From the NCBI GenBank assembly GCA_024653945.1, contig JANLIT010000002.1:146508-210507 (forward strand): 64,000 nucleotides of DNA, in the 5' to 3' direction. A model generated the notes under the pieces. It searched no databases, was not told the DNA's origin, and was given only the letters and a program-made list of their open reading frames with translations. Of the stretch, positions 13,191 through 35,327 are shown piece by piece. The DNA comes from Candidatus Campbellbacteria bacterium (GTDB lineage Bacteria > Patescibacteriota > Minisyncoccia > Phycocordibacterales > EsbW-18). The translations under genes and the position numbers were made by a program. Each line of letters opens with the position of its first letter. Position 1 is the stretch's first letter.

Positions 13191-13256
13191 ACCCGAGAGG
13201 GTGTTTTTCTATTTTGGGTATATTAACTTTTTATCTTTAAGGGTCATACTAGGGTC

Positions 13257-14966: not shown

Positions 14967-14975
14967 AAAAAGAAA

Positions 14976-15005
14976 CAGCCCCGACGTAACGTCGGGGCTG
15001 TTTTT
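14976..15005. terminator. Rho-independent terminator
   Basis: cagccccgacgtaacgtcggggctg followed by tttttcg. Confidence 0.75.
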
Positions 15006-15012
15006 CGTTCTG

Positions 15013-15096
15013 TGCGCAGGAGAGGATTTGAACCTCCAAGCCCTTGCGGGCGCTACCACCTCAAGGTAGTGCGTCTACCAATTTCGCCACCTGCGC
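15013..15096 (-). tRNA. tRNA-Leu (anticodon GAG)
   Basis: Acceptor GCGCAGG/CCTGCGC; 3-bp D-stem; anticodon loop TTGAGGT; long variable arm; T-arm GGAGG-TTCAAAT-CCTCT. Confidence 0.85.
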
Positions 15097-15171
15097 GGTG
15101 AGGGCAGTATAAACTAAAGTTGAAAAACAGGGAAGAGAACACAGATTTTGGTTCGGTGCTATTCTACATAT

Positions 15172-16254: not shown

Positions 16255-16347
16255 TTTTTTTTGTCGCTTTACTGAAGGTTTTTTGGTACAGTATCCCCAC
16301 AACTTGTCTTGAGCGAGCCAGAGCCCGTCCTCGGCGAGTCGAAATAT

Positions 16348-16419
16348 GGTGCCTATAGTTTAGTGGTAAAACTCCGCTCTGTGGCAGCGGTGTCGAGAGT
16401 TCGATTCTCTCTAGGCACC
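16348..16419 (+). tRNA. tRNA-His (anticodon GUG) with encoded G-1
   Basis: G-1 plus GTGCCTA acceptor; anticodon loop CTGTGGC; T-arm GAGAG-TTCGATT-CTCTC; discriminator C73. Confidence 0.85.
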
Positions 16420-16459
16420 CCAATTAGAGGTAGGTTCTGGTCGAGCAAGGGTTGTGACC

Positions 16460-20204: not shown

Positions 20205-20399
20205 ATGAAGTACCAAGACTACATACAATATATAGATAAAGAGATTGAGGCCCTTAACTGGACTATTGATGAAAAAATAATGCAAGGAATTTCGTATCGT
20301 TCTGAAGCAAAGAGACACAAAGAGCTGATACGGTGGGCACGACGCAATCGTCGTCCATCACTTTTTAAAAGACTTTCATCAGTCATGGCACTCTTTTAA
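20205..20399 (+). CDS. Small basic protein co-transcribed with lexA
   Basis: 64 aa. Its stop overlaps the lexA start (TAATG). It lies downstream of the SOS-box promoter. Confidence 0.45.
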   Translation: MKYQDYIQYIDKEIEALNWTIDEKIMQGISYRSEAKRHKELIRWARRNRRPSLFKRLSSVMALF

Positions 20400-20971
20400 T
20401 GCTTACCGAGTACACACAAAAACTTCATTCGTTTTATGAAAAGAATAAACGAATGCCAACGTATACAGAGATGGCGAAGCTTTTCGGTTTTAAATCTAAA
20501 AACGCAGTTTTTAAAGTTGTTGAAAAACTTGTTGAAGCGGGTGCAGTAACCAAAGATTATCTCGGACGTCTCACACCAACAATGCTCTTTGGTGAAGTAA
20601 AAATGCTCGGCTTCATTGAGGCGGGTATTCCGTCACCAACAGAAGAACACGAATTTGATTCTCTTACGCTTGATGAGTGGCTCATCAACGATCACAATGC
20701 GACATTCATTCTTAAGGTAAAAGGGGACTCCATGGTGGACGCGGGAATTTTTGAAGGAGATTTCGTACTTGTTGAACGCACCGACACATGGAAGGTGGGG
20801 AATATTGTGGTTGCTGACATTGATGGGTTGTGGACACTCAAATATTTACGTCGTAATGCAGAGGGCTACTATCTCCAACCGGGAAACAAAAAATATCAGA
20901 ATATCTATCCCCAAGAGGAACTCAAAATTGGTGCAGTGGTCCGCTCGGTGATTCGACGGTACGAAAAATAG
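20399..20971 (+). CDS. lexA: LexA repressor
   Basis: N-terminal winged HTH, Ala-Gly-type linker, S24 peptidase domain with GDSM (catalytic Ser) and Lys (VGNIVVADIDGLWTLK). Confidence 0.85.
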   Translation: MLTEYTQKLHSFYEKNKRMPTYTEMAKLFGFKSKNAVFKVVEKLVEAGAVTKDYLGRLTPTMLFGEVKMLGFIEAGIPSPTEEHEFDSLTLDEWLINDHNATFILKVKGDSMVDAGIFEGDFVLVERTDTWKVGNIVVADIDGLWTLKYLRRNAEGYYLQPGNKKYQNIYPQEELKIGAVVRSVIRRYEK

Positions 20972-21007
20972 CCAAGCCCTCCACAAGACTCTAACAGGGT
21001 TGACACA

Positions 21008-21028
21008 GTATACCCCATGGGGGTATAC
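21008..21028. promoter_or_regulatory. CsoR-type operator (perfect palindrome GTATACCCCATGGGGGTATAC) overlapping the -10 of a TTGACA/TATACT promoter
   Basis: A GC-rich ATACCCC..GGGGTAT dyad like known CsoR operators. Sits directly upstream of csoR-copA. Confidence 0.65.
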
Positions 21029-21039
21029 TGCTTTTATAT

Positions 21040-21306
21040 ATGCATACACACATACATAAAAACGTTGAAAACCGTCTCAAACGTATTGAGGGGCAAGTTC
21101 GTGGTTTACAGAAAATGGTTGTAGAGGGTAAGTACTGTATTGATGTTATTACCCAATCATCGGCCATCAGAAATGCACTTGCCTCGGTGGAGGACTTAAT
21201 GTTGCAAAACCACTTGACGCAACACGTAGTGCACCAGATGAAACACGGCAAAGAAACGAAGGCGGCACAGGAGATTCTCAAAGTGTACAAACTCAAACGA
21301 AAATAA
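21040..21306 (+). CDS. csoR: CsoR/RcnR-family metal-sensing repressor (DUF156)
   Basis: 88 aa. [40 protein letters not shown]...H...H fits the C-H-C copper-sensing helix-bundle layout. Confidence 0.75.
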
Positions 21307-21311
21307 TTTTT

Positions 21312-23669
21312 ATGGATACTACAAAAACATACAACATAAAAGGAATGCACTGTGCGTCATGCGCAGCAATTATTGAGAAAACCTTTAAGAAAACAGACGG
21401 TGTTACATCCGTACAAGTAAACTATGGCACAGAAACCGCAAAAGTTTCTTTCGATGAGTCAAAAACAAACCCAACAGATCTTTCAAAGAAGATAGAGCCA
21501 CTCGGATACTCTCTACGCTTGCCAGATAGCCCGAGTGTGAAAGAAACGAGTCCCGTTAGAGGCCGCGAAGACATGGAGCGGTCTTCTGACTCTAATGGGA
21601 TGGGAATGTCTGAGGATGAACATTCGGCACATCTCGGTCTTAATCAATCCAAAAAAGAGAAATTGGCAGAACTGGCTGACATGAAAAGTAAAATTATTTC
21701 AGTTATTCCACTTACCATCATCAGTACCATCATTTTAGTGTGGGATATTGTTGCGCGATTTAACTCAGGCGCCGCAATGCCGGAGTTTTGGAGTGAATTC
21801 TTTCACCACCTACTTCCTATAATGGCGACCTATACACTTTTTGTTGTAGGACAGCCATATCTTCTTGGTTTTTACAGATTTCTTCGTTATGGCAAAGCAA
21901 ACATGGATACGCTTATCGGTATTGGTACGTCCGTGGCGTTCCTCTACAGTTTTATTGTTACTGCGTTTGAAGAAACATTACGACCATTCATTAATGTAGA
22001 TAATACGTACTATGACGTTACCATTATTGTTATTGCCTTCATTGCATTTGGTAAATATCTTGAGGCGCGTTCAAAATTAAAGACAGGAGATGCGATTGAA
22101 AAACTTCTCAATTTGCAGGCAAAAACAGCACTCGTGATTCGTGATGGAAAAGAAATAGAGATTCCGGTGAATGAGGTGAAACACGGAGACGTACTTGTCG
22201 TAAAACCCGGCGCAAAAATTCCTGTTGACGGGACAATCATGGAAGGCTCTTCGTTTGTGGACGAGTCCATGGTGACAGGAGAGCCGATGCCTGCACAGAA
22301 AAAAGTGGGGGATAGTGTTGTTGCTGGAACCATTAATACCACAGGTTCATTTACATTCACCGCAACAAAAGTTGGCTCGGAGACACTGCTTGCTCAGATT
22401 ATTCACATGGTTGAAGAGGCACAGGGAAGCAAGGCACCGATTCAGGCACTCGCAGATAAGATATCTGGTGTCTTTGTCCCAATTGTGCTCGTTATTGCCT
22501 TCGTAACTCTGGGTACATGGCTTCTTGTGGGGACACAATACCTCGGATTCTCACAAGCACTTTCATTTGGGCTCGTGTCGTTCGTGGGAATTTTGGTGAT
22601 TGCGTGTCCGTGCGCACTAGGGCTCGCAACGCCGACGGCAATTATCGTTGGAGTGGGCAAAGGTGCAAAAGAAGGTATTCTTATTAAAGATGCAGCAACA
22701 TTAGAGAAATTACATAAGGTGGATACGGTTATTGTGGACAAAACAGGAACCATCACCATTGGAAAACCAACACTTGTTGATATTCAGAATTTCTCAAAAA
22801 TGTCAGATGATGAACTTGTATCACTTCTTGCATCACTTGAGAAAAAATCAGAACATCCTATTGCACACGCAATTGTGTCGTATGTACAAGATAAGGCTAT
22901 TAGTGTTGAAGATGCTTCAAATTTTGAAGGAATTCAAGGAAAGGGTGTGACGGCAACGGTCAAAGGAATTCAGTACTATGCGGGAAATGTAAAATTGATT
23001 TCAGACCTCGGCACTTCTTTTGATGCTTCAAAAATTGAAACGTTTACCGCGCAAGGAAAAACTCCAGTTATTCTTGCGACGAAAGAGAGCGTTCTCGGGT
23101 TTGTTATGGTTGCTGATGAAATAAAAATAGAATCAAAACAGGCAATTGCAGATCTTCACAAACTCGGAATCAAAGTGGTGATGCTCACCGGAGATGATGA
23201 GAAGGCGGCGAAATACATGGCATCTCTTGTTGGTATTGATGACGTGGTAGCACATGTGTTGCCACAGGACAAGTTGGCAAAAATAAAAGAATTGCAGTCG
23301 CGGGGACGTATTGTTGCTATGGCAGGAGATGGAGTGAATGACGCACCGGCACTTGCTCAAGCGGATGTTGGTATTGCGATGGGTACAGGAACTGATGTTG
23401 CCATAGAATCAGCAGGCATTACGCTTCTTGGTGGAGATATCTCAAAGCTAGTGAAAGCAATTAAGCTTTCAAAGATGACCATGTGGGGAATCAAGCAAAA
23501 CTTGTTCTGGGCGTTTATTTACAACATCGTTGGTATTCCACTTGCTGCAGGAGTATTTTATCCAGTTTTTGGATGGCTACTCTCTCCGGTGTTTGCTGGT
23601 TTTGCGATGGCAATGTCTTCAGTGTCTGTGGTATCAAATTCCTTACGAATTAAAACTAAAAAATTATAA
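21312..23669 (+). CDS. copA: Copper-translocating P1B-type ATPase
   Basis: N-terminal HMA ([12 protein letters not shown]), CPC in TM6 ([12 protein letters not shown]), DKTGTIT phosphorylation site, [10 protein letters not shown]. Confidence 0.9.
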
Positions 23670-23682
23670 GTAATTAAAAAAT

Positions 23683-24306
23683 ATGAATAATAAAATTATT
23701 TTTGGAATCGGAGGAATCATTGCCGGCCTCCTGCTGGCGTTCATTCTTACACCTGGGGGTTTTTTCGGGTACCGTACCGCAGGATTTAGAATGATGGGCT
23801 TTGATACTGAAGGCGTAGGGAATACCCAAGTGATGAATGGTATTGATAGACATTTTATTGAACAGATGATACCGCACCACGAGGGAGCCATAGCAATGGC
23901 TACCCTTGCACTACAAAAGGCAGTGCATCCAGAAATTAAAACATTGGCGCAGGCAATCCTTGTGGCCCAAACAAAAGAAAATGTAGATATGAGAGTATGG
24001 TACGGAGAGTGGTTCGGTACAGATGCCCCCGAGAACACCCTTTCCATGATGGGGGGGATGATGTCACAAAGAGGAATGCATATGGGTGGGCAGGAAGATA
24101 TAAACAAACTGAACACTGCCGCAGATTTTGACAAGGAGTTTATTGAACAGATGATACCGCACCACCAAATGGCAATTATGATGGCACAGATGCTAAAAGC
24201 TGGGACCAGCAGACTGGAAATGTTAACTCTTGCAAATAATATTACCGAATCGCAGTCAAAAGAAATAGAACAAATGGAAAGTTGGTATAAGAGTTGGTAT
24301 AAGTAA
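23683..24306 (+). CDS. DUF305-family protein (copper-resistance associated, two repeats)
   Basis: Signal/TM followed by two FIEQMIPHH..AI.MA repeats. Confidence 0.7.
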   Translation: MNNKIIFGIGGIIAGLLLAFILTPGGFFGYRTAGFRMMGFDTEGVGNTQVMNGIDRHFIEQMIPHHEGAIAMATLALQKAVHPEIKTLAQAILVAQTKENVDMRVWYGEWFGTDAPENTLSMMGGMMSQRGMHMGGQEDINKLNTAADFDKEFIEQMIPHHQMAIMMAQMLKAGTSRLEMLTLANNITESQSKEIEQMESWYKSWYK

Positions 24307-24349
24307 AATTATATAAGTTAAGATTATTAGATTAATTAAAGAACTTATT

Positions 24350-24571
24350 ATGAAACTATCTAAATTAATGCATGTCGTCAGTGTTATCGTGGGGTTTGTC
24401 GGAATCATAGTGTTTGCAGGTGCCATTCTAGGTGGGTCGGATAATTTGGTTTTTGGAATTACAAAAGTGGGTGCTCTACTCTGTGCCGGAATTCTTATTC
24501 TTATAGCAATTTGGTTTGCGATTGCAACAATTCATCACACGATGCTTGAGAAGCGAGGAGGAATTGTTTAA
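24350..24571 (+). CDS. Small membrane protein (2 TM)
   Basis: 73 aa, hydrophobic. Confidence 0.4.
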   Translation: MKLSKLMHVVSVIVGFVGIIVFAGAILGGSDNLVFGITKVGALLCAGILILIAIWFAIATIHHTMLEKRGGIV

Positions 24572-24589
24572 TAGATTAATAAAAATTAT

Positions 24590-24853
24590 ATGGAACTATC
24601 ATTAAAAAAATATGGTTGGAAATGTGTACTTGGCTCGGAGGTTATCTACGTTATTTGTCTTCTTGGGGGGTATATTCCATGGCGTTCAGAAGTAGCCACC
24701 GAATTACACCACCGTTTGTTTGAAACTCTCCCCGGTTTTGTGTGGGGAAATTCTAGCAGTATTGTTCTTGGTGCGGTGTATATGTTTGTCTTTGCTTGGA
24801 TATTTGGGAGTTATATGGTCTGGATGCACAATTCAAGTTTAAAGAAGAGCTAG
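24590..24853 (+). CDS. Small membrane protein
   Basis: 87 aa, two hydrophobic segments. Confidence 0.4.
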   Translation: MELSLKKYGWKCVLGSEVIYVICLLGGYIPWRSEVATELHHRLFETLPGFVWGNSSSIVLGAVYMFVFAWIFGSYMVWMHNSSLKKS

Positions 24854-24870
24854 AGTACCCGCTTGACTAC

Positions 24871-24889
24871 TATACCCCGTGGGGGTATA
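24871..24889. promoter_or_regulatory. Second CsoR-type operator (TATACCCCGTGGGGGTATA) within a TTGACT/TATAAT promoter
   Basis: cttgactactataccccgtgggggtataatg has 8-bp arms identical to the csoR operator. Confidence 0.6.
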
Positions 24890-24912
24890 ATGAACTTCAA
24901 TATGAATATGAA

Positions 24913-25332
24913 ATGAATATGAATTCTCTGTTTAAAAAAAATATAGCCATCATTGTTCTGGTAGTATTTTCAATGCTGGTTCTTTTCAGTTTTGGTGTGG
25001 TGGCACATGAGTCGGGGAAACAAATGACGGGCGACTGCCCCTTCTCAACGGCGGGAGCCACCATTTGTCCACAAGATGTACTTTCGGTGGCCATTCACCA
25101 CATCTCTGCGTATAATTCGTTTTTTAATGTACCAACAAGTTTTGGATTGACCGCACTCATTATTTCTGTGTTGTCGGTAATCGCCACTCTGTTTGTTATT
25201 TCCCCGCGGTTACAGCTACCGAGTCGATTGGTTTTTGCCCATACTGTACACACCTCTCCCACAGTCAATTCATATACTAGGAAAATAATTCAGTGGCTGT
25301 CTCTTTTTGAAAATAGCCCCTCCCGCACCTAA
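24913..25332 (+). CDS. Hypothetical membrane protein downstream of the second CsoR box
   Basis: MNMNSLFKKNIAIIVLVVFSMLVLFSFGVVAHE...CPFSTAGATICPQD. The upstream part of the ORF track entry overlaps the promoter and was trimmed. Confidence 0.45.
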   Translation: MNMNSLFKKNIAIIVLVVFSMLVLFSFGVVAHESGKQMTGDCPFSTAGATICPQDVLSVAIHHISAYNSFFNVPTSFGLTALIISVLSVIATLFVISPRLQLPSRLVFAHTVHTSPTVNSYTRKIIQWLSLFENSPSRT

Positions 25333-25430
25333 AAGCACTTAAAAAGTCTAGCTTTTTAAGTGCTTTCGACTCGCGCATGCATCGCGGGTTTTTGTATTAC
25401 AAAATACTACTCACTTCTAATCTACAAATT

Positions 25431-25946
25431 ATGAAACCACAAACAGTTATTATCACAGTCCTTGCATTCGCCACTGTTATAGGTCTTCTTGTTGTCGGCT
25501 ATAACAAAAACGGAAACGCAGCAGCATCTGTACAAGGTGTGTCAGCGGTTACAGGAGAAAGTGGACTCACTGTGTCTGAAACCCTCTATGATTTTGGCAC
25601 AATATCCATGAAAAATGGAAACGTAACAAAAGATTTCACACTTACTAACCCGACCGATGCAGATATTATGGTTGGTCGTGTTGAAACGTCATGTATGTGT
25701 ACAGCTGCATATATTGTTGAACCGGATGGAACCAACAAGGGACCGTTTGGTATGCCGGGACACGGAGGTGCGGTTCCTCCAGCAAATGAAATAATCCCAG
25801 CAGGAGAAAGTCGCATCATTCGTGTTGTGTATGACCCAAATGCTCACGGTCCAGCAGGTGTTGGAAAAATTGACCGTTTCATTACCATCACAGATTCTGC
25901 AAACCAATCTATTCGTATTGAAGTTAAAGCTGTAGTAACCCCATAG
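25431..25946 (+). CDS. DUF1573-like secreted protein
   Basis: Signal anchor followed by FGTISMKNGNVTKDFTLTN...VETSCMCTAA, which resembles the DUF1573 S-C-x-C-T motif. Confidence 0.45.
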   Translation: MKPQTVIITVLAFATVIGLLVVGYNKNGNAAASVQGVSAVTGESGLTVSETLYDFGTISMKNGNVTKDFTLTNPTDADIMVGRVETSCMCTAAYIVEPDGTNKGPFGMPGHGGAVPPANEIIPAGESRIIRVVYDPNAHGPAGVGKIDRFITITDSANQSIRIEVKAVVTP

Positions 25947-25950
25947 TCAT

Positions 25951-26730
25951 ATGAAAAAACTTATTATTAGTATTGGGGTGGTGCTCATCGCACTTAGTGC
26001 GGTTGTTGTTCTGAAGTACAGTCCCGGATTCTCAACATTCCTATGGAACGCGAGCAATGGCGGTGTCTGGCTCCTGCCTCTTGTTGGTTTTTCGGCGCTT
26101 CTTGACAGTGTGCATCCGTGCTCATTCTCGATTTTGCTCATCACTATTGCGTTTCTCTTTGGTCTACAAATGACCAGAAAGAAAATTCTCCAGATTGGTG
26201 GATTCTACATTGCTGGAATCTTTGCCGCGTACTTTACGATTGGCATCGGTATCTTGAAGGTCATCCACATCTTCAATGTGCCGCACTTTATGGGGAAACT
26301 TGGGGCAGCGCTCCTTATTATCTTCGGAATACTCAACCTCCTCGGCGCGCTCTTTCCGAAGTTCCCTATAAAACTCAAACTTCCTGACGCTGCGCACGGG
26401 GCGATGAGTAAACTTATTAACACCGTCTCCGTGCCAGCAGTGTTTGCTCTCGGATTACTAGTTGGACTCTGTCAGTTTCCATGTATGGGTGGTCCGTACC
26501 TTATGGTTATTGGTCTTCTGCATGACCAAGTTACCTACTTCTCAGGTCTTGGATATCTCCTCCTCTACAATGTGATTCTCGTTGTACCACTTGTAGCGAC
26601 CCTTTGGATTGCTGCAAATCCAACACTTATCGACAAAATTATGCTGTGGAAAAAAACCCAAATGAAAGACGTTCATCTGTGGGCGGGTATTGCAATGATT
26701 ATTATCGGCATCCTAGTACTTTTCATCTAA
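25951..26730 (+). CDS. ccdA: CcdA/DsbD-family thiol:disulfide transporter
   Basis: 6-8 TM. Conserved Cys in TM1 (VHPCSFS) and TM4 (CQFPCMGGP). Confidence 0.65.
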   Translation: MKKLIISIGVVLIALSAVVVLKYSPGFSTFLWNASNGGVWLLPLVGFSALLDSVHPCSFSILLITIAFLFGLQMTRKKILQIGGFYIAGIFAAYFTIGIGILKVIHIFNVPHFMGKLGAALLIIFGILNLLGALFPKFPIKLKLPDAAHGAMSKLINTVSVPAVFALGLLVGLCQFPCMGGPYLMVIGLLHDQVTYFSGLGYLLLYNVILVVPLVATLWIAANPTLIDKIMLWKKTQMKDVHLWAGIAMIIIGILVLFI

Positions 26731-26731
26731 T

Positions 26732-27121
26732 ATGACATTTCTCAAGAAAGTCTGTCCGGTGTGCACGCTCGTAGCTCTCACATGGCTTTCAATGTTTGTG
26801 TTCAAGGTACTTGGGTATGCCGTTAATAATGAGCTCCTTGCGATGCTCATGGGCGGTAGTGTGGTTGGTATCTCGTACACACTTGCCGCACGACTGCGAC
26901 CTGTCTTTCATAAACCAGTGACGATGTATTGGAAGCTCATTACAATCCCTCTCGGGTTTATAGCCATGTATGCGACTTTACAGTTTATGTGGTGGTATAC
27001 CGTCGGGGCAGTAGGTATATACGCTCTTGTGTGGGCGGTTTTCAACGGTATGTTTACCGCAACGGAGAAGGGGGAACATTTAGAAGACATTACTAAAGCA
27101 TTAGATACGTGTTGTGAATAA
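26732..27121 (+). CDS. Hypothetical membrane protein with CPVC motif
   Basis: 129 aa, 4 TM. N-terminal CPVC and C-terminal CC. Confidence 0.4.
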   Translation: MTFLKKVCPVCTLVALTWLSMFVFKVLGYAVNNELLAMLMGGSVVGISYTLAARLRPVFHKPVTMYWKLITIPLGFIAMYATLQFMWWYTVGAVGIYALVWAVFNGMFTATEKGEHLEDITKALDTCCE

Positions 27122-28070
27122 TTATATGGAAGAAACAAAATACACAGAAGAAACTATAGTAAACAATCCAGCACCTCGCAGTGGTTCAAATCCAATACCA
27201 CTCGCAATTCTTGTTGCTGGAGTTCTTATCGCTGGTGCAATGTGGTTCAGAGGTACTGGTGGAGTGGGTCAACTTCAGGCGACAGGTGACAAAGAAGTAA
27301 ACAGTCAAGTGTTGGCTTTTGAAGAGTCAATTATTCCATCGGAAGGTGTTGTCTTACCAGCAACGTGGGGTGATCTTGGAGCAAAACTTGTCAGTGTTGG
27401 TGCAATTGATGTTGAAAAATTAAAGACAACCTATGATCAGAGGGGCGCACTTCCAGAGGGATTTAATAAACTTCTCCTTGAACAAAACAATGGCAAGTTA
27501 AAAATAACTCGTGAGAATTCCGCCTATCTTCTCAATCTCTTATGGGCGCTCGGGCTTGCAAGCGATAATTCTATTTTGGAATCAGGAGAAATGTCTGACC
27601 CGAAGTATGGTGGTGCACAAAACTTTACTTCAACCGCTGGTTGGACAATTGCACAAGGTAACCCAATGGACCACTACAGCAAACATAGATTCTTCAATCT
27701 CACACCAGAGCAACAGGCACTCGTAGACAAAGTATCGCGGGGCATATTCCGTCCATGCTGTGGAAACTCCACACATTTTCCTGACTGCAATCACGGCATG
27801 GCGATGCTCGGCCTTCTTGAACTGATGGCATCACAAGGTGTGAGTGAAGAAGACATGTACAAAGCAGCTCTTGCAGTCAATTCGTACTGGTTTCCTGATA
27901 CCTATCGTACCATTGCGACATACATGAAAAACAAAGGTATCGCATGGGCGAATGTGTCTCCATCAGAAGTGCTTGGTGCACAATACTCGAGTGGTACGGG
28001 ATACGCAAAAATTAAGGCACAAGTTACACAACCACAACAGCAACAAGGTGGAGGTGGGTGTAGTGTGTAG
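27114..28070 (+). CDS. Hypothetical membrane-anchored protein with CCGNSTHFPDCNHG motif
   Basis: 318 aa, one N-terminal TM, C-terminal Gly run. Possible metal-binding Cys/His cluster. Confidence 0.45.
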   Translation: MNNYMEETKYTEETIVNNPAPRSGSNPIPLAILVAGVLIAGAMWFRGTGGVGQLQATGDKEVNSQVLAFEESIIPSEGVVLPATWGDLGAKLVSVGAIDVEKLKTTYDQRGALPEGFNKLLLEQNNGKLKITRENSAYLLNLLWALGLASDNSILESGEMSDPKYGGAQNFTSTAGWTIAQGNPMDHYSKHRFFNLTPEQQALVDKVSRGIFRPCCGNSTHFPDCNHGMAMLGLLELMASQGVSEEDMYKAALAVNSYWFPDTYRTIATYMKNKGIAWANVSPSEVLGAQYSSGTGYAKIKAQVTQPQQQQGGGGCSV

Positions 28071-28155
28071 TTTGCTTAAAAAGCAACCATTGCACGTTGT
28101 AAAAAGTTGGATATCCAACAAAAACTTCTTACCAATAATATAGTGCTCTATACCT

Positions 28156-28443
28156 ATGCATATTCACGATGAAAAAAATAATAGTGGCATGATGTGGATG
28201 ATGGTGCTCTGTTGTGTTCTACCACTTCTTCTTATAGTGATTTTTGGTGCGGGTGGAAAAGCAATCGGTGCTCCAACGTGGTTTATTTTTGGTGGAATTA
28301 TAGTGATGGTGGTGATTCACTTCGTTATGATGAGAAAATCACACAAACATTCTGATGAACAGCATGAAGTAACTGATACAAACAACAAGAAGCAAGATAC
28401 CAAAAACGATGCGGGTCATTCTGGACACAGCTGCTGTCACTAA
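28156..28443 (+). CDS. Small membrane protein with His/Cys-rich tail (HSGHSCCH)
   Basis: 95 aa, two TM. Metal-binding-like C-terminus. Confidence 0.45.
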   Translation: MHIHDEKNNSGMMWMMVLCCVLPLLLIVIFGAGGKAIGAPTWFIFGGIIVMVVIHFVMMRKSHKHSDEQHEVTDTNNKKQDTKNDAGHSGHSCCH

Positions 28444-28446
28444 TAG

Positions 28447-28668
28447 TTGTTAAAAACAAATACTATGGAAAACAGAGTTAAATCACTAATTAAAAAGCTG
28501 AGTAGATTTGGGTTTAGTGTAAAAGAAAAAGATCGTATTGATCCTGTGTGTGGAATGAAATCAACAAGCGATTTATTTGAGAGCGACTATCGGGGTAAAA
28601 TATATTATTTTTGTTCCGAACACTGTAAAAACCAATTCGATGGCAATCCAAGCACGTATGTAAAATGA
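28447..28668 (+). CDS. YHS/TRASH-domain metal-binding protein
   Basis: DPVCGMKS...YYFCSEHCKNQF is a YHS-domain Cys pattern. Confidence 0.7.
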   Translation: MLKTNTMENRVKSLIKKLSRFGFSVKEKDRIDPVCGMKSTSDLFESDYRGKIYYFCSEHCKNQFDGNPSTYVK

Positions 28669-28669
28669 C

Positions 28670-29119
28670 ATGGACAAAAAACAGAAGTCAAAAACCTATC
28701 TGTTCGCCATTAGTGCGACCGCCGTACTCCTGCTTGTCTATATAGGTGTAGTTACAGCGGTATCTGGATGGAAATTTGCCCAAGATCAATTTGGAAATTA
28801 CTGGTACTTTCTGGTCAGTTTAGCGGGTGGTTTCGGAGTCCAAGTTGGGTTGTACTCATATCTCAAACAGCTCGTGACAAATGGCGGTATGGTTGTAGGG
28901 GGTAAGATAATGGCTACGACAGGGACAACCTCCACACTCACAATGATTTCTTGCTGTGCACATTATCTAGCAAACATAGTACCAATACTTGGGATTGCGG
29001 GGGTGTTGTCTACCATCGCTCAATATCAAGTTGAGTTTTTCTGGGTTGGGCTTGCTTTCAACGCGCTTGGCATTGTCTTTATTAGCAATAAAATAATTAC
29101 ATACAAAAGACGCGTATGA
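28670..29119 (+). CDS. Hypothetical membrane protein (CCAHY motif)
   Basis: 149 aa, 4 TM. Confidence 0.4.
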   Translation: MDKKQKSKTYLFAISATAVLLLVYIGVVTAVSGWKFAQDQFGNYWYFLVSLAGGFGVQVGLYSYLKQLVTNGGMVVGGKIMATTGTTSTLTMISCCAHYLANIVPILGIAGVLSTIAQYQVEFFWVGLAFNALGIVFISNKIITYKRRV

Positions 29120-29580
29120 GTATAAAAAAATCACTATGGATAATTATGACGATCGCCGCTGTCATTGCGGGGGCTTTTGTGTTCTATAAGAAGCTACCAT
29201 CTCTGCCGGCATCTCCAATTGAAGTTGTCACACCATCTGCAATACATACATGGGAGACAAAGATTGACGAACAGGCCGGCGTGACGGTGTCTGTCACTCC
29301 GGAAATAAACCTGGTAGATTCACAAGAGTGGAAGTTCGACATTATTATGGATACCCATTCGGTTGAGTTAGATCAGAATATGACCGAAGTTGCTGTGCTT
29401 GTCGATGACTTTGGAAATGAGTACGGTCCAACTACATGGGAGGGTGCGCCAGTAGGAGGTCACCACCGAGGAGGTGTTCTTGTCTTTACTCCGATTGTGC
29501 CGTATCCACAACATTTGAAATTAAATATACAAGGCGTTGGTGGCGTGCAAAGATCGTTTTCGTGGATTCTGACCGAATAA
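29116..29580 (+). CDS. Hypothetical secreted protein
   Basis: 154 aa, N-terminal signal anchor. No recognisable family. Confidence 0.4.
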   Translation: MSIKKSLWIIMTIAAVIAGAFVFYKKLPSLPASPIEVVTPSAIHTWETKIDEQAGVTVSVTPEINLVDSQEWKFDIIMDTHSVELDQNMTEVAVLVDDFGNEYGPTTWEGAPVGGHHRGGVLVFTPIVPYPQHLKLNIQGVGGVQRSFSWILTE

Positions 29581-29632
29581 CGTTATAGATGCGAGCGTCA
29601 TGCTGGTGCGTTTTGTGGTACAATGACGCACT

Positions 29633-30667
29633 ATGGCAGATTTAAATCAAAAAAAGTACACATTTCATGTTCATGGAATGCACTGTAAAGCATGTGTGCT
29701 TTTGACGGAAGCCGAACTAAAAGAATTGCCTAACGTGTCGTATGTAAAATCAAGTCTTACCAATCATTCAGTTGAAGTGGTGGGGGATTTTGGTGACAAA
29801 ACACCAGAGCAAATTGCGCAGGAATTGACCATTCCATTGAAAGCAAGTGGGTACATCGTGTCGGTTGAACGACAAGAACACACAGCAATATGGAGTGATT
29901 TTAAAATCGCGATTCCAATAGCACTTGGGTTTGCGGTGCTCTTTGTTCTGTTACAAAAGGCAGGACTGGTGAATCTTATCAACGCAAATGGCGTGTCGTA
30001 TGGAACGGCATTTGTTATTGGTATTGTTGCATCGCTCTCAACATGTATGGCAGTTGTTGGGGGACTCCTCCTCTCTATGTCTGCAACGTTTGCCAAGGAG
30101 GGAGACAAGATTAAACCACAACTCATGTTTCATGGCGGGCGCATTGTTTCATTCTTTCTTCTCGGTGGGGTTATTGGTGCGCTGGGATCGGCATTTACAC
30201 TCGGTACAATGGGAACGTTTATTTTAGGTCTCCTTGTTGCACTCGTGATGCTCATTCTCGGCATCAATCTTCTCGATGTATTTCCATGGGCGAAAAAGTT
30301 ACAACTATCAATGCCAGCATTTATAGGGAAGCATGCGCACGGTATTTCAAAATTCAATCACACACTCACACCACTTCTCGTTGGTGTTGCAACATTCTTT
30401 TTGCCGTGTGGATTCACACAGTCAATGCAGTTGTATGCACTTACAACAGGAAGTTTTATGAGTGGGGGACTCACCATGCTTGCCTTTGCCCTCGGTACAC
30501 TACCAGTTTTGACACTCGTGAGCTTTAGTTCATTTAGTATTAAAAATAGTTCAAAATCGGGCATCTTCTTTAAATCAGCAGGACTTATTGTTATTATGTT
30601 TGCACTGTTTAATCTCATTAACAGTCTTGTGGTCATCGGTCTTATTCCACCAGTTTTTAGCTTCTAG
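29633..30667 (+). CDS. Heavy-metal-associated (HMA) domain fused to a polytopic membrane domain (DsbD_2/UreH-like)
   Basis: N-terminal GMHCKAC HMA motif. 6-8 TM with conserved Cys (STCMAV, FLPCGFTQ). Confidence 0.6.
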   Translation: MADLNQKKYTFHVHGMHCKACVLLTEAELKELPNVSYVKSSLTNHSVEVVGDFGDKTPEQIAQELTIPLKASGYIVSVERQEHTAIWSDFKIAIPIALGFAVLFVLLQKAGLVNLINANGVSYGTAFVIGIVASLSTCMAVVGGLLLSMSATFAKEGDKIKPQLMFHGGRIVSFFLLGGVIGALGSAFTLGTMGTFILGLLVALVMLILGINLLDVFPWAKKLQLSMPAFIGKHAHGISKFNHTLTPLLVGVATFFLPCGFTQSMQLYALTTGSFMSGGLTMLAFALGTLPVLTLVSFSSFSIKNSSKSGIFFKSAGLIVIMFALFNLINSLVVIGLIPPVFSF

Positions 30668-30674
30668 TATCCGT

Positions 30675-31064
30675 ATGAACAAACTCACACTTCTGTCATT
30701 CGTTATTGCCGGCGCACTTATCTTTTTTGCGTTCACTTTCTCTAAATCAAACCCACTTCCAAATGATGTTCCAGAAAACAACGTTTCAATTGTGGATGGG
30801 GTTCAGGTTGTTGAAATTCTTGCAAAAGGAGGATACTTTCCTGAAAAAAGTGTGGCAAAGGCAGGTATTCCAACTATTTTGCGTCTCAAAACCAGCGGTA
30901 CGTTTGATTGTTCATCAATAGTCCGTATTCCGAGCTTGAATATCACGAAAAATCTGCCACCATCGGGAGGTCTTGATGTGGACCTCGGAAGTCCAAAAGC
31001 CGGAGTGATGCAGGGAACATGTGGTATGGGTATGTACCCATACGAAATTGATTTTCAAGAATAA
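30675..31064 (+). CDS. Secreted protein, possible cupredoxin-like copper-binding domain
   Basis: Signal anchor then a small beta-rich domain with C...GTCGMGMY. The cupredoxin_1-like assignment is tentative. Confidence 0.35.
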   Translation: MNKLTLLSFVIAGALIFFAFTFSKSNPLPNDVPENNVSIVDGVQVVEILAKGGYFPEKSVAKAGIPTILRLKTSGTFDCSSIVRIPSLNITKNLPPSGGLDVDLGSPKAGVMQGTCGMGMYPYEIDFQE

Positions 31065-31135
31065 TTTAATTATTTTCTGGTATATTCTGCACATAATTTT
31101 GAAAAAAGGTATGTGCGGGATATACTCTCTCTGTT

Positions 31136-31678
31136 ATGGAAACAATCCCCTATCCAATCATTAATACGCTCATCATGCTCGGCATTGCCGTGCTGCAGGT
31201 GGCATCTCTTACACTTTTGCTCGGATTGCTCAACGTGCGTGGGTTTTCTTCTGTGGTTTCGTTTGTCCGCTCTCGTGGAATGACCATTTCGTTTCTTATT
31301 CTTTTCGCGTCATTTATTGGTAGCTTGTACTACTCAGAAATTGCTGGTTTTCCAGCATGCTCGCTGTGTTGGTATCAGCGAATTCTTCTCTACCCGCAAC
31401 TTATTCTTTTTGGCGCCGCGTTGTGGAAGGGAAGACAGGATGTGTTTTTGTACACCAACACACTTTCGGCTGTTGGGTTATGTATTGCGCTGTACAACAT
31501 TGCCATTCAAACATTTCAAACAGTTTCCACTTTTTGTGATCCAGGAGGATTGGCCGTGTCATGTCTTCAAAAATATGTTATTGGGTACGGATACATTACT
31601 ATTCCGGTGATGTCAGCAACGGCTTTTGCACTTCTTCTTCTTATTGGTTGGGCAATGAGCCCCAAAATGGACAAGTAA
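31136..31678 (+). CDS. dsbB: DsbB-family disulfide bond formation protein (BdbC-like)
   Basis: 4 TM. CSLCWYQR in the first periplasmic loop and a second Cys pair (CDPGG..C). Confidence 0.75.
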   Translation: METIPYPIINTLIMLGIAVLQVASLTLLLGLLNVRGFSSVVSFVRSRGMTISFLILFASFIGSLYYSEIAGFPACSLCWYQRILLYPQLILFGAALWKGRQDVFLYTNTLSAVGLCIALYNIAIQTFQTVSTFCDPGGLAVSCLQKYVIGYGYITIPVMSATAFALLLLIGWAMSPKMDK

Positions 31679-31747
31679 GGGTTTTTTGCACTGTGGTATA
31701 ATGATCTTATTAGTACAGTTGTTTTTATTTAATTTCCATATTTATTT

Positions 31748-32410
31748 ATGCACCAAAAAACTATCTGGGTTCTTATTATTGTTATCCTTCTTGCCGGCGG
31801 TTGGTATTTTATGTCGCGTAAGACGGTGGAAGCTCCTAATGACATAGCAACAACAACACGGCAAGGTTCCGTGGGTACGCTCACTGACGGTGTGTACGCA
31901 CTTGATGTAGAGAAAAGTTCCCTTACATGGACGGGAAGTAAGACACTCATTAAAGAATATTTTGACAACGGAACGCTTTCATTCAAGGAAGGGTCTGTAA
32001 TTGTAACGGGGGGCACTCTTGTTGCGGGTTCGTTTGTTGTTGATATGAAGTCATTCAAAACGATTTCAACAAGCAATCAAAAAGTTCCAGGAAGCGCTCT
32101 GGAGACTCATCTCAAATCGGCAGATTTTTTTGATGTTGCAACGTATCCGATTGCAACCGTTGGTATCAAGAGTGTTGAAAACGGCATCGTGAAAGCGGAC
32201 GTAACCATTAAAAATGTGACGAAGGAGGTTTCTTTCCCGGCAACAATTTCACAAGATGGAAAAACACTTTCAGGCACAGCATCACTGACTCTTGACAGAA
32301 CACTGTGGGACATTCGTTACGGTTCAGGCAAATTCTTTAGTGATCTTGGGGATAAGGTTATTTCAGACTCGGTCAAAATTGACCTTACACTCGTTGCGCA
32401 AAGTAACTAG
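31748..32410 (+). CDS. YceI-like family protein
   Basis: Signal anchor followed by a YceI lipocalin-like domain (LTWTGSKTLIKEYFDNGTLSF...DVATYPIATV...GKTLSGTASLTLDRTLWDI). Confidence 0.75.
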   Translation: MHQKTIWVLIIVILLAGGWYFMSRKTVEAPNDIATTTRQGSVGTLTDGVYALDVEKSSLTWTGSKTLIKEYFDNGTLSFKEGSVIVTGGTLVAGSFVVDMKSFKTISTSNQKVPGSALETHLKSADFFDVATYPIATVGIKSVENGIVKADVTIKNVTKEVSFPATISQDGKTLSGTASLTLDRTLWDIRYGSGKFFSDLGDKVISDSVKIDLTLVAQSN

Positions 32411-32526
32411 CACACAAAGAGATTCAATCTCTAAGAACGACACCACCCTCACTGTGTAACATTTTACTGACCTCGGCGTATACTGGAGTAGATAGTACCA
32501 ATATTAAACAACTAACATTTCATTAT

Positions 32527-33387
32527 ATGGAAACAAGTGCAGTACAAAAAGCGGTAAAGTATCTTGGGTGGCTTTGTATCGTTCTCATTATTTTTGTTGG
32601 TGTTTCAGCATTAAATGCTCTTAAAGAAAACCGCTACATTGGCGGAGGGGTTTCTGCGTCTAACGTCATTACCATCAACGGTGAAGGCGAAGTATTTGCG
32701 GTTCCCGATATTGCAGAAATAGGTTTTTCGGTTTTTGCAGAGAAAAAAACACTAACCGAAGCACAGAGTGTATCGGCAGAAAAGATGAATACAATTCTCG
32801 CATTCCTTAAAGACCAAGGAATTGATGACAAAGATATTAAAACGACCAACTACAGTGCAAATCCGAAATATGAATGGACAAACGAAGTAACGCCAATGTC
32901 TAGTGGTTCGTCTGGTGCCGCAGAGCCTGGATATGGTGGTGTGCAAACATCTGTTGTATATCCTGACTACTACCCACGACCACAAAATCAAGTCATTGTT
33001 GGGTATGAAGTTCGACAAACTATTACCGTGAAAATTCGTGATACAGAGAAAGTCGGGGCACTCGTTTCTGGTATTGGTGAGAAGGGTGCGACCGATATCT
33101 ACGGTCCAACATTTACCATTGATGATGAGGTGGCATTGCAACGCGAAGCACGTCAGAAAGCAATTGATGATGCAAAAAATAAAGCAGAACAATTGGCAAA
33201 AGACCTCGGTGTAAGAATCGTGCGCATTGTAAGTTTCTCGGAAAATGGTGGTGGCTACTACCCAATGATGTTTAAGGGTATGGAAGCAACAGTATCAAGT
33301 GATTCTTCAGTTCCACCCGTCCCCCAAATTCCAGTTGGTGAGAACAAAATCACTGCAAACGTTTCTATTACGTACGAAATTCGCTAG
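32527..33387 (+). CDS. SIMPL-domain protein (YggE/DUF541-like, oxidative stress associated)
   Basis: N-terminal TM then ITINGEGEVFAVPDIAEIGFSV ... ITANVSITYEI, the SIMPL architecture. Confidence 0.7.
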   Translation: METSAVQKAVKYLGWLCIVLIIFVGVSALNALKENRYIGGGVSASNVITINGEGEVFAVPDIAEIGFSVFAEKKTLTEAQSVSAEKMNTILAFLKDQGIDDKDIKTTNYSANPKYEWTNEVTPMSSGSSGAAEPGYGGVQTSVVYPDYYPRPQNQVIVGYEVRQTITVKIRDTEKVGALVSGIGEKGATDIYGPTFTIDDEVALQREARQKAIDDAKNKAEQLAKDLGVRIVRIVSFSENGGGYYPMMFKGMEATVSSDSSVPPVPQIPVGENKITANVSITYEIR

Positions 33388-33420
33388 CTCTGCACTCGTC
33401 TCATATTTTGTAGAAGCACG

Positions 33421-33442
33421 AAAACCGCCTGGTGGCGGTTTT
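33421..33442. terminator. Rho-independent terminator nested in a 14-bp long-range inverted repeat
   Basis: aaaaccgcctggtggcggtttt, flanked by tattttgtagaagc ... gcttctacaaaata. Confidence 0.65.
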
Positions 33443-33502
33443 CTCCTTCCAGCGCCGCCGCGCTTCCAGAGGCTTCTACAAAATAGAGACTCACTCCGTA
33501 CC

Positions 33503-33529
33503 CCGAACTTTTGTGTTACAAAAGTTCGG
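33503..33529. promoter_or_regulatory. CCGAACTTTTGTGTTACAAAAGTTCGG palindrome with conserved flank, upstream of pilB
   Basis: ctccgtaccccgaacttttgtgttacaaaagttcggtgaaaataca is near-identical to 35436-35480 upstream of pilC. Confidence 0.6.
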
Positions 33530-33578
33530 TGAAAATACAAGAAGTGCTACAATATACCTAACACCCTAACACCTTTTC

Positions 33579-35327
33579 ATGCACTTTGATTTACAACAAC
33601 TCATTCAGTTTCTTGTTGATACAAAAATGCTTTCCCTTGGTAAGGCGCAAGAACTTGAAAAACGGGCCCTCGAGCAAAAAATGTCGTTTGAGGATCTCGT
33701 TGTGTCCGAGGGAATTATTCCTGAAGATGATTTGCGGAGAGCAAAATCGCACGTTCTCGGCATTCCATTTGTTGATTTAAAGAATGAAAAAATAGATTTC
33801 AAAACACTGTCGCTCATTCCTGAACCGATTGCTCGTTCAAATAATGTTGTTGCATTTCGTGTTACGGGCACAGATTTAGAGGTTGCCATGTTGGATGTGC
33901 AGGACCTTAAGGCAATTGACTTCATAAAAAAGAAAACAGGTCTTAGCATCCTTCCGCGTCTTACCGATGTTGACTCAATAAAAAATGCACTCATTCAATA
34001 CCAACGAAGTTTGAAATTGGAGTTTGGTGATATTTTGAAAAATGAGGCAGCTGCACTTTCTGCTACATCGGGAAGTGTTGGTGAAAATGCCTCTGGAGAA
34101 ACACTCAAAAAGTTAGCCGAAGATCTTCCCGTGGTACGTATTGTTGAAACGCTTATCCGCCACGCGGTTGTTGAGGGTGCATCTGATATTCATATTGAAC
34201 CCATGGAAAAGGATTTGCTTATTCGGTACCGCATTGACGGACTACTTCATGATGCAATGACCTTACCCAAACAGGTTTCGGCCGGAATAGTCGCGCGCAT
34301 TAAGGTGCTTTCCAATTTAAAACTTGATGAAAAACGACTACCACAGGATGGACGATTTAAAATGGACATTGAAAGTGAACGTGTGAGTTTTCGTGTTTCA
34401 ACACTTCCTATTTACTACGGAGAGAAGATTGTGATGCGTATTCTTCACGAAGGCGCATCCGGTTTTACACTTGAAACACTCGGTTTTCACGGAGAAGGAC
34501 TTGAAGCGCTCCATTGGGCAACAAAGCAGGCAACGGGATTGATTCTTGCAACCGGTCCGACTGGGTCAGGTAAGACAACGACCCTGTATACAGTTTTGGA
34601 TATTCTCAACACACCAGATGTAAACATTTCAACCATTGAAGACCCAATTGAGTATCAGATGCCACGGGTAAATCAGACGCAAGTAAAACCAGAAATAGGG
34701 ATGACGTTTGGAAATGGATTGCGCGCACTTGTTCGTCAGGACCCGGATATTATTATGGTGGGAGAAATTCGTGATGGAGAAACGGTCGGACTTGCAATCA
34801 ACGCCGCATTGACCGGACACCTCGTACTCTCAACAATTCACACAAACTCCGCAGCTGGTGCGGTGCCAAGAATGTTGGACATGGGTGCGGAACCATTTCT
34901 TATCGCATCTACGCTCAAGGTCATTGTTGGTCAGCGTCTTGTGCGTGTTCTTGCACGAAAAGAAAAATATTCTCTGTCTGCGGATGAATTAAAAGCGCTT
35001 GGTAAGTCAGTTGACCTTGATCGCATGCTCGGCTTTCTTATAACCGAAGGATTGGTTGCAAAGAACGCAACGTGGAAAGAAGTTCCGTTCTATCGTCCAA
35101 AAGAAGTGAAAGACGGAGATGATGGATACAAGGGGCGTATTGGTATTCATGAGGTGCTTAAGGTTTCAAGTGCACTACGCGAACTTATGATTAAACGTGC
35201 CTCAATGGAAGAAATGGAAAATCAAGCAAAGAGCGAGGGAATGATGACGATGATTGAGGACGGTGTCTTTAAGGCGGTTATGGGTTTGACGACCCTTGAG
35301 GAGGTGTTGCGTGTGGTTACCGAATAA
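33579..35327 (+). CDS. pilB: Type IV pilus assembly ATPase PilB (GspE family)
   Basis: GPTGSGKTTTLY Walker A, Asp/His boxes, N-terminal GSPII_E domain. 582 aa. Confidence 0.9.
   Translation: MHFDLQQLIQFLVDTKMLSLGKAQELEKRALEQKMSFEDLVVSEGIIPEDDLRRAKSHVLGIPFVDLKNEKIDFKTLSLIPEPIARSNNVVAFRVTGTDLEVAMLDVQDLKAIDFIKKKTGLSILPRLTDVDSIKNALIQYQRSLKLEFGDILKNEAAALSATSGSVGENASGETLKKLAEDLPVVRIVETLIRHAVVEGASDIHIEPMEKDLLIRYRIDGLLHDAMTLPKQVSAGIVARIKVLSNLKLDEKRLPQDGRFKMDIESERVSFRVSTLPIYYGEKIVMRILHEGASGFTLETLGFHGEGLEALHWATKQATGLILATGPTGSGKTTTLYTVLDILNTPDVNISTIEDPIEYQMPRVNQTQVKPEIGMTFGNGLRALVRQDPDIIMVGEIRDGETVGLAINAALTGHLVLSTIHTNSAAGAVPRMLDMGAEPFLIASTLKVIVGQRLVRVLARKEKYSLSADELKALGKSVDLDRMLGFLITEGLVAKNATWKEVPFYRPKEVKDGDDGYKGRIGIHEVLKVSSALRELMIKRASMEEMENQAKSEGMMTMIEDGVFKAVMGLTTLEEVLRVVTE

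Follow-up and report, generated by a model that had tools for sequence, protein, structure and literature searches.

A probable copper(I) stress island under CsoR-type operators in a Candidatus Campbellbacteria genome

The CsoR regulons of Corynebacterium glutamicum and Streptomyces lividans, in which a PF02583 repressor with an RLxR motif is matched to a TAC-X9-GTA operator, resemble the locus described here in these elements; they, too, carry multiple operators in a genome, are autoregulated and govern a P1B-1 ATPase (PMC3902906, PMC5057107). Our locus lies in a 64-kb window (the whole stretch of DNA analysed) of a metagenome-assembled Candidatus Campbellbacteria (Patescibacteria) genome; its genes, promoters and RNA elements, given by window position, are all on the plus strand, whereas the operators have no strand. 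It departs from those regulons in that the repressor is of the C-H-H and not the C-H-C type, CopZ is missing, many family-less accessory genes are attached, and the second operator stands at a Cys/His protein with two transmembrane helices, which we call g7, and not at a second copZA operon. We consider the locus to be, with good probability, a copper(I) stress island in which a CsoR-family repressor acts on two promoters (P1 and P2), the genes directly behind g7 are reached by attenuated read-through and the products include outward-facing Cu(I) and thiol proteins. Regulator and operator are known in kind, CsoR/CopA control of copper being textbook. What is new is the wiring of such an operator to a family-less membrane protein, a conserved RNA element after that gene, and the attachment to csoR-copA of a large number of families that are uncharacterised, extremely conserved and confined to Patescibacteria. 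Full-text literature searches returned no description of a CsoR regulon, or of this cluster, in Patescibacteria or the candidate phyla radiation (CPR).

Other described systems share single features with the locus. CsoR of Thermus thermophilus (PDB 3AAI) has the same H-C-H-H ligands and also adjoins copA (PMC5057107), but its similarity to the window repressor is only moderate (E 2.4e-8). The CopY-CupA-CopA system of Streptococcus pneumoniae encodes, near copA, an anchored cupredoxin whose Cys and CxMxM ligands align with those of the cupredoxin in our window. The domain of the latter is predicted to face outward by the positive-inside heuristic, the basis of all our topology calls; its gene is paired with that of an HMA-DsbD_2 protein and not placed directly in the copA operon, and the regulator is CsoR and not CopY. 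In Salmonella (ScsABCD) and Escherichia coli (DsbD/DsbC), copper tolerance is linked to extracytoplasmic thiol proteins and to a conduit for reductant in the membrane. The window differs from both in its families (DUF1573, CCGN318 and g7), in coming from single-membrane Patescibacteria and in having CsoR, not CpxR. Compared with the reductive branch of cytochrome c maturation, where the path leads from CcdA to ResA/CcmG and on to CcmH, the window cluster is without haem-handling genes, its context is copper efflux and not respiration, and the corresponding motif reads RPCCGNS...DCNH and not LRCxxC.

The regulatory claim is carried by two perfect dyads, TATACCCC-N3-GGGGTATA, at 21009-21027 and 24871-24889, the sole such sites in 64 kb. 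A first-pass annotation of the window had placed them there, which reading of the sequence confirmed. The pattern ATACCCCNNNGGGGTAT has exactly two matches in the window even with two mismatches permitted, against 0.04 expected, and none of 100 shuffled sequences reached two. Both dyads satisfy TAC-X9-GTA, the inverted repeat needed for binding in S. lividans, S. aureus, L. monocytogenes and B. subtilis (PMC3902906). They are identical to the CsoR box of C. glutamicum, ATACCCCnnnGGGGTAT (PMC5057107), and their eight-base arms are common to the experimentally defined Streptomyces consensus, ATATACCCCTNAGGGGTATAT (PMC3902906). When positions 20300-33700 were scanned for the promoter consensus, the two top-ranked sigma-70-like promoters, each agreeing at 11 of 12 consensus positions, were precisely those holding the dyads. 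P1 (TTGACA-18-TATACT, 21000..21029) contains operator 1 (21008..21028), GTATACCCCATGGGGGTATAC, a TAC-X9-GTA site kept in the related loci L051 and L081; P2 (TTGACT-17-TATAAT, 24863..24891) contains operator 2 (24871..24889), TATACCCCGTGGGGGTATA, whose right arm overlaps the -10 element. The earlier assignment of the second dyad to a TTGACT/TATAAT promoter thus stands, with a spacing of 17. In both promoters the dyad occupies the spacer and overlaps the -10 element, the classic position of a repressor. The csoR ATG comes 11 nt past the -10 element of P1, so that the csoR mRNA would be nearly leaderless.

For comparison we used 80 Patescibacteria loci (L001-L080, 1.16 Mb) picked with a single bait, the CCGN318 family encoded further along the cluster, so that the presence of copA or csoR played no part in the choice; all window proteins were placed onto these loci by tblastn. 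The related loci contain 37 instances of the exact-arm pattern ATACCC-N4-7-GGGTAT, compared with 0-1 in shuffled sequences. Directly upstream of csoR lie 31 of these dyads, three precede g7 and one precedes HMA-DsbD_2; the remaining two are found before a copA without adjacent csoR (L015) and at a contig end. Dyads embedded in a promoter before g7 are present in the window, L051 and L081, which form one lineage, and also in L010, L018, L020, L024 and L063. Allowing up to two mismatches adds dyads before g7 or g7-like genes (L020, L024, L063) and before CCGN318 (L031), and degenerate copies precede g7 in L004 and L013. Among the window, L051 and L081, 15 of the 16 arm positions of the pre-g7 dyad are invariant (the exception being C to T in L081), whereas two of its three spacer positions vary, and the csoR dyad of this lineage likewise keeps its arms with a variable spacer.

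Because of this arm conservation with variable spacers and the recurrence across related loci, both dyads appear to be real, conserved operators, and on sequence grounds we regard them as bona fide CsoR-type operators in promoter position. The same assignment had been made in the first pass, and both the match to the C. glutamicum and Streptomyces boxes and the 31 dyads upstream of csoR support it. That the second dyad could instead be a chance palindrome, or a hairpin ending the upstream operon, is extremely improbable. It is able to form an 8-bp hairpin, but with a stability no greater than that of shuffled sequence (z -0.84) and with no U-run; it sits exactly between -35 and -10, only 0.04 such sites are expected per window, its arms are kept in three genomes while the spacer varies, and the same arrangement is seen in independent lineages.

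The repressor gene, csoR (21040..21306), encodes 88 aa that match PF02583 (Trns_repr_metal) at 1.9e-25, with 89.5 bits against a cutoff of 22.8; the closest solved relatives are the CsoR proteins of Geobacillus (4M1P, 1e-15) and Streptomyces. Residues 12-15 read RLKR, an instance of the RLXR motif that touches DNA from helix alpha-1 of CsoR (PMC3902906). The metal ligands are Cys33-His58-His62 (within HLTQH), together with an N-terminal MHTHIH, which makes the protein H-C-H-H type, a pattern found in E. coli RcnR and in Thermus CsoR, the latter with low metal selectivity (PMC5057107). This bears on the earlier proposal of a single copper sensor: a CsoR-family repressor is indeed present, but its ligands are C-H-H and not the canonical C-H-C. 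The repressor might consequently not be primarily a copper sensor, responding to Ni/Co like RcnR or broadly like Thermus CsoR, in which case the island would answer to several thiophilic metals (Ag, Zn, Cd, Hg). To its H-C-H-H fingerprint (MHTHIH, C33, H58, H62) and the poor selectivity of the equally H-C-H-H Thermus CsoR (PMC5057107) one may add weak MerTP/MerP matches of the vicinal-Cys membrane proteins and of the HMA-membrane fusion. We nevertheless judge this to be unlikely, as the repressor always adjoins a P1B-1 (CPC/YN/MxxSS) ATPase, some Patescibacterial orthologues with identical context and the same operator are C-H-C and others C-H-H, an N-terminal His is no constant feature of the latter, and MerA, MerR and a Ni/Co exporter are all absent. 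The context of a P1B-1 CopA, a CupA-like protein, a YHS protein and HMA domains argues for copper as the signal. A mercury (mer-like) system, considered for the vicinal-Cys membrane proteins and the weak MerTP/MerP matches, was rejected because neither MerA nor MerR is found and the CsoR and P1B-1 CopA pair is present.

Two side observations concern the surroundings of csoR. A second class of csoR paralogue (N-terminus MVDQKLKK, YCP..LLEQS, C-H-H) lies downstream of CCGN318 in several related loci (L002 ~6010, L004 ~4700, L018 ~11040, L023 ~11030, L045 ~9200, L070 ~11320, L071 ~3700) and is preceded by a different promoter-embedded motif, TTGACAAATAGGGTATGGGGGTATAGGATAT, a sign that the cluster may have operators of two specificities. 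Directly upstream of P1 there is a gene for a LexA-like S24 peptidase (20399-20971), and the order lexA-dyad-csoR recurs in L051.

P1 is likely to drive csoR, copA, a DUF305 gene and two small membrane genes, tm73 and tm87. CopA (21312..23669) has E1-E2 ATPase and HAD domains, an N-terminal HMA domain (GMHCASC) and, in its translation, the motifs CPC, YN and MxxSS (AMAMSS), which we take to be the Cu(I)/Ag(I) signatures of the P1B-1 class; it is accordingly a P1B-1 Cu(I) ATPase by Pfam and motif content. The DUF305 protein (23683..24306; PF03713 at 3.3e-40) combines HH and Met-rich motifs with an N-terminal anchor. tm73 (24350..24571) is a small membrane protein to which Pfam and NCBIfam scans assigned no family, and tm87 (24590..24853), also a small membrane protein, keeps C12, C23, HH40-41 and M79-H80 invariant and is found between csoR and copA in eight related loci.

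Behind P2, g7 (NUW02_01410, 24919..25332) encodes 137 aa with two transmembrane helices and is family-less, with no match in Pfam (up to E 10) or NCBIfam. In the alignment, the loop between the helices carries GDCPFS-x6-CPQ-x8-HH, and the predicted cytoplasmic C-terminus, K-x3-WLSLFENSP, is invariant. In most genomes g7 follows copA or small membrane genes at 2-46 bp and so seems to close the cop transcription unit; the window lineage appears to have given it a CsoR-operated promoter of its own. In a census of 54 g7-type genes, 7-8 had their own dyad and 19 stood directly behind cop genes. CsoR wiring of the g7 module is, as judged from these loci, frequent but lineage-dependent.

Immediately after g7 comes a structured RNA (25333..25395) recognized by folding energy and covariation. 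Its first hairpin (25333-25365) is a perfect 15-bp, AU-centred stem, while the second (25368-25395) is GC-rich, is followed by a U-run and resembles an intrinsic terminator; the two together fold at -28.4 kcal/mol (z -5.7). An alignment of 11 loci has compensatory changes in 13 of 19 pairs, and among 36 loci inspected many have the two-hairpin layout after g7 (L051 8214-8288, L081 4699-4773, L033 8023-8096, L041 920-994, L010 3211-3293 and others). The covariance model R1 matches solely the post-g7 position in the window, and its sole significant match (E<=0.001) outside the training set, in L074, is again post-g7; weaker matches (E 0.02-1) fall on post-g7 positions (L018, L021, L052, L001, L045) and on unrelated ones. 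No Rfam family covers the element, nor was any found within 20300-33700. We considered that the hairpins could act as an antiterminator switch and rejected this since no alternative pairing was found. In other lineages, a second sequence class (GACGCCGATATAAAACCGTTTGTCGAACGG...) fills the post-g7 place.

This element changes how the genes behind P2 are to be read. The first-pass annotation had the second operator heading a same-strand run of about 17 genes; the count is 14, and a single operon under that operator is not supported. If one polycistronic mRNA ran from g7 to the SIMPL gene, all 14 genes would be copper-induced through CsoR at P2. In keeping with this, the genes lie on one strand, closely spaced or overlapping, neither DUF1573 nor HC95 is preceded by a visible good promoter, and the sole clear strong terminator-like hairpin, GAAAACCGCC-tggt-GGCGGTTTTC (33420..33447, z -3.1), closes the run. 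We find such a transcript improbable in view of the conserved, covarying hairpin and terminator after g7 and of candidate promoters inside the run. One of these is an extended -10 element, TGTGGTACAAT (29614..29624), kept in L051 and only 9 nt before the HMA-DsbD_2 ATG, which would imply a nearly leaderless mRNA. Exact TGKGGTAYAAT occurs just twice in 64 kb, here and 46 nt before yceI (TGTGGTATAAT, 31692-31702), and TTGAAA-16-TATACT (31099-31126) precedes dsbB inside a 48-nt hairpin. In addition, only in the closest relatives do dsbB, yceI and SIMPL stay in synteny with the cluster. Given the covarying terminator and the internal promoters, P2 does not seem to be the simple head of a 14-gene operon. 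The stretch from the post-g7 terminator to the start of DUF1573 (25431) and the region before HC95 yielded no convincing promoter, so these genes probably depend on read-through and their copper-dependent expression would be attenuated.

The first genes beyond the terminator encode a DUF1573 protein, a CcdA-like protein, CPVC129 and CCGN318. For DUF1573 (25431..25946; PF07610 at 3.3e-12), an anchored protein with invariant TSCMCT, M78, M126 and H157, Pfam bears out the earlier family call, but the likely start is 25431 and not 25377. A DUF1573 selenoprotein with a UGC motif has been described (PMC9312934), which fits a redox-active CxC. The polytopic CcdA-like protein (25951..26730) has invariant HPC57 and C174-QFP-C178; HPC57 and FPC178, with C174, are constant in 54 homologues, placing P-C motifs in both halves, and family identity is 70-92%. 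Seven of 22 homologues match PF11139 (SfLAP), and that family only; PF11139 presumably belongs to the same Pfam clan as DsbD. The protein also has a weak ArsG match, and public databases name the family CcdA. An hhalign comparison with DsbD_2 was weak (probability 4.5%), yet two of the Cys align with those of DsbD_2. The ccdA label given in the first pass is thus retained as CcdA-like, with conserved membrane Cys but no Pfam DsbD or CcdA match. Its coupling of CcdA to disulfide formation has to be abandoned, as CcdA supplies reductant and forms no disulfides.

CPVC129 (26732..27121) is a membrane protein with an N-terminal CPxC and a C-terminal CC whose gene overlaps the next by 8 nt. That next gene encodes CCGN318 (NUW02_01430, 27114..28070), an N-terminally anchored protein from a 318-aa open reading frame; it is 100% identical to NUW02_01430, although the deposited protein starts four codons later, and it has no Pfam family. 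RPCCGNSxxFPDCNHGMAMLG and a C-terminal GGC tail are invariant, and the family has more than 5000 homologues at 60-70% identity, in 704 clusters at 50% identity. Its best structural match is the thiol oxidoreductase CcmH, with RPCCGNS...DCNH in place of LRCxxC; there was no match to Pfam CcmH (PF03918), Foldseek against the PDB gave nothing significant, and profile searches of PDB sequences with the CcdA-like protein, CCGN318 and p154 returned nothing. CCGN318 fusions are rare and comprise an N-terminal Rhodanese domain in P0302 (406 aa) and C-terminal BNR repeats in P0369 (603 aa); several homologues of 450-550 aa carry N-terminal extensions of 150-240 aa without Pfam family.

In about 19 loci, DUF1573 and the CcdA-like protein are replaced, between g7 and CCGN318, by a Pfam-significant DsbD_TM protein with CC motifs and a Redoxin/AhpC-TSA/SCO1-like (SCO1/SenC) protein with CxxxC. 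This substitution is the strongest support for the idea of a thiol relay, and it also favours the link between thiol redox and copper handling made in the first pass. An example of this type-2 module is L063 7953-9459; others are in L001, L003, L009, L015, L018, L019, L024, L043, L045, L052, L064, L072 and L077. CPVC129 often gives way to a protein of 178 aa that ends in ..CCKE, and the two share the end motif EDI..L..CC.E.

The following genes continue the pattern of small Cys-, His- and Met-bearing proteins. HC95 (28156..28443) is, by translation and conservation, a small membrane protein with MHxH, MMWMM, CC and a C-terminal CCH. It is followed by a YHS-domain protein (28447..28668; PF04945 at 1.7e-14), by the family-less membrane protein tm149 (28670..29119), with invariant GTTST..MISCCAHYL, and by p154 (29116..29580), an anchored, beta-rich protein whose alignment has W-x-G ... 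GGHHR-x-G invariant and for which no PDB or Pfam relative was found. In the next pair, one protein joins an HMA domain (GMHCKAC) to a DsbD_2 membrane domain in which C138 and C259 are invariant (29633..30667; Pfam), and the other is a CupA-like anchored cupredoxin (30675..31064; Cupredoxin_1, PF13473, at 7.7e-7). In phmmer the cupredoxin matches CupA (2MRY/4F2E) at 5.4e-5, with DC79SS and C116GMGM aligned to PCLD and CGMNM, the Cu(I) ligands; the Cys and CxMxM are invariant in 23 homologues, which makes it CupA-type. The soluble domains of CCGN318, DUF1573, p154 and the cupredoxin are predicted to face outward. Even at permissive thresholds, tm73, tm87, g7, CPVC129, CCGN318, HC95, tm149 and p154 matched no Pfam or NCBIfam family, and each accessory family has invariant Cys/His/Met motifs. 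The first-pass view of the small Cys/His proteins as family-less candidates linked to copper gains from this and from their genomic tie to csoR-copA; its gene calls for csoR, copA, DUF305, DUF1573, YHS, HMA with DsbD_2, Cupredoxin_1, DsbB, YceI and SIMPL all agree with Pfam.

The tie to csoR-copA is visible across the related loci. Within 10 kb of CCGN318, copA is present in 62 of 80 loci and csoR in 42, both lower bounds since many contigs end early. Three modules recur beside csoR-copA: g7-DUF1573-CcdA-like-CCGN318, HC95-YHS-tm149-p154, and HMA-DsbD_2 with the cupredoxin. Between csoR and copA we find tm149 and p154 in three loci (L005, L026, L064), two of them with HC95, and CCGN318 in three others, accompanied by CPVC129 in two (L022 and L053) and, in the third (L042), by g7, DUF1573 and the CcdA-like protein. 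In L077, DsbD_TM-Redoxin-CCGN318 stands directly behind csoR. HMA-DsbD_2 and the cupredoxin are always paired and have their own perfect promoter-embedded dyad in L061. Median identity to the window protein (L001-L080) is 73% for tm73, 69% for tm87, 66% for HMA-DsbD_2, 65% for the CcdA-like protein and 60% for CCGN318, against 43% for CopA; the accessory families are thus more conserved than CopA, which points to strong constraint or to lateral spread within Patescibacteria.

We hypothesize the following course of events for a copper(I) stress island. The C-H-H CsoR would bind the 19-bp dyad in each of P1 and P2 and block RNA polymerase, until cytoplasmic Cu(I), possibly also other thiophilic metals, releases it from both. 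P1 would then give the autoregulated, nearly leaderless csoR-copA-DUF305-tm73-tm87 transcript and P2 would give g7, expected to be the most strongly induced accessory product, since the hairpin and intrinsic terminator directly after g7 would attenuate transcription. DUF1573, the CcdA-like protein, CPVC129, CCGN318 and perhaps HC95-YHS-tm149-p154 would be transcribed in a copper-dependent manner by read-through only, while HMA-DsbD_2 with the cupredoxin, dsbB and yceI would use promoters of their own. CopA would export Cu(I), and the outward, anchored g7, DUF1573, CCGN318, p154 and cupredoxin might bind the exported ion or pass it on. The CcdA-like and DsbD_2 proteins may carry reducing power outward, where it would keep thiols reduced or repair copper-catalysed disulfides, with CCGN318 as a CcmH-like terminal thiol protein.

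Several observations weigh against this interpretation. The canonical x-C-H-C fingerprint of Cu(I) sensing is not that of the window repressor, which is C-H-H; lacking the second canonical Cys and sharing its pattern with RcnR and Thermus CsoR, it may have broad selectivity. The outward topology is a prediction whose sole source is the positive-inside heuristic. The CcdA-like protein (25951-26730) had no Pfam match even at E 10, DsbD_TM (PF02683) and DsbD_2 (PF13386) included, and its AlphaFold2 model is poor (predicted local distance difference test, pLDDT, 55). Finally, around half of the g7-type genes (about 27 of 54), in other lineages, have a promoter without recognisable dyad; the module is therefore not obligatorily wired to CsoR and may have a more general role in envelope thiol redox.

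Such a role is the substance of a rival account, which we rate as possible though not favoured: the g7-CCGN318 module would be a general extracytoplasmic system for thiol redox or envelope maturation (e.g., of pilins or surface proteins), not for copper handling, and would merely sit beside the cop genes or be co-induced with them since copper damages thiols. Besides the dyad-free promoters, it could draw on the CcdA/DsbD-type and Redoxin-type partners in the module, the CcmH likeness of CCGN318, the Rhodanese fusion of one homologue and median identities of 60-65% against 43% for CopA in the same loci. It fits less well with copA being nearby in 62 of 80 loci, the module lying inside the csoR-copA operon in several lineages, the Met/His-rich as well as Cys motifs, typical of Cu(I) sites, and the additional SCO1/SenC score of the substitute, CxxxC-bearing Redoxin. 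The copper(I) stress island remains our preferred reading. A more specific version of it is offered tentatively, as we think it rather less likely to be right than wrong: g7, the CcdA-like/DsbD conduit, the DUF1573 CxC or Sco-like redoxin, the CC-tail protein and CCGN318 might form a Patescibacteria-specific surface thiol relay for copper(I) detoxification, in which CCGN318, as a CcmH-like module, would have been recruited from cytochrome maturation into copper defence and the post-g7 RNA would set the stoichiometry of g7 to the relay. Patescibacteria generally lack cytochromes.

CsoR/CopA offers a regulatory handle on at least eight family-less proteins (g7, tm73, tm87, CPVC129, CCGN318, HC95, tm149 and p154), several of which are among the most conserved in Patescibacteria. 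If they serve copper handling or thiol redox at the surface, the retention of a 9-12 kb island in genomes of about 1 Mb would be accounted for, and a phylum whose biochemistry has hardly been studied by experiment would gain definite objects of study in their structures, metal binding and redox potential. The operon picture is corrected as well, by a conserved attenuator-like RNA after the first gene and by the candidate internal promoters. The locus is not paradigm-changing unless the relay hypothesis is proven, but it is useful for CPR biology and metal homeostasis.

The last three genes of the same-strand run, assigned by Pfam, are dsbB (BdbC-like, 31136..31678), yceI (31748..32410) and a SIMPL/DUF541 gene (32527..33387). 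They had been counted in the copper cluster, which is not supported: they accompany it only in the nearest relatives, so we regard them as neighbours. dsbB is syntenic in L051 and L082 only; in L082, dsbB-SIMPL-pilB persist and HC95, YHS, tm149, p154 and yceI are absent. dsbB is probably outside the copper regulon, judging from this distribution. The predicted dsbB promoter is enclosed by a 48-nt near-perfect inverted repeat, GGTATATTCTGCACATA...TATGTGCGGGATATACT (31079-31126; -24 kcal/mol, z -6.6), which may act as a terminator or as the operator of some other regulator. In L051 just some 25 nt separate dsbB from the cupredoxin gene, and in L082 another gene lies between them; judged by these gaps, the repeat is probably absent from both. 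Type IV pilus/type II secretion system genes, pilB-like (33579-35327) and pilC-like (35532-36743), follow the locus, and the first 17 kb of the window hold seven tRNA genes (Lys, Ser, Arg x2, Val, Leu, His), dispersed over 1652-16422.

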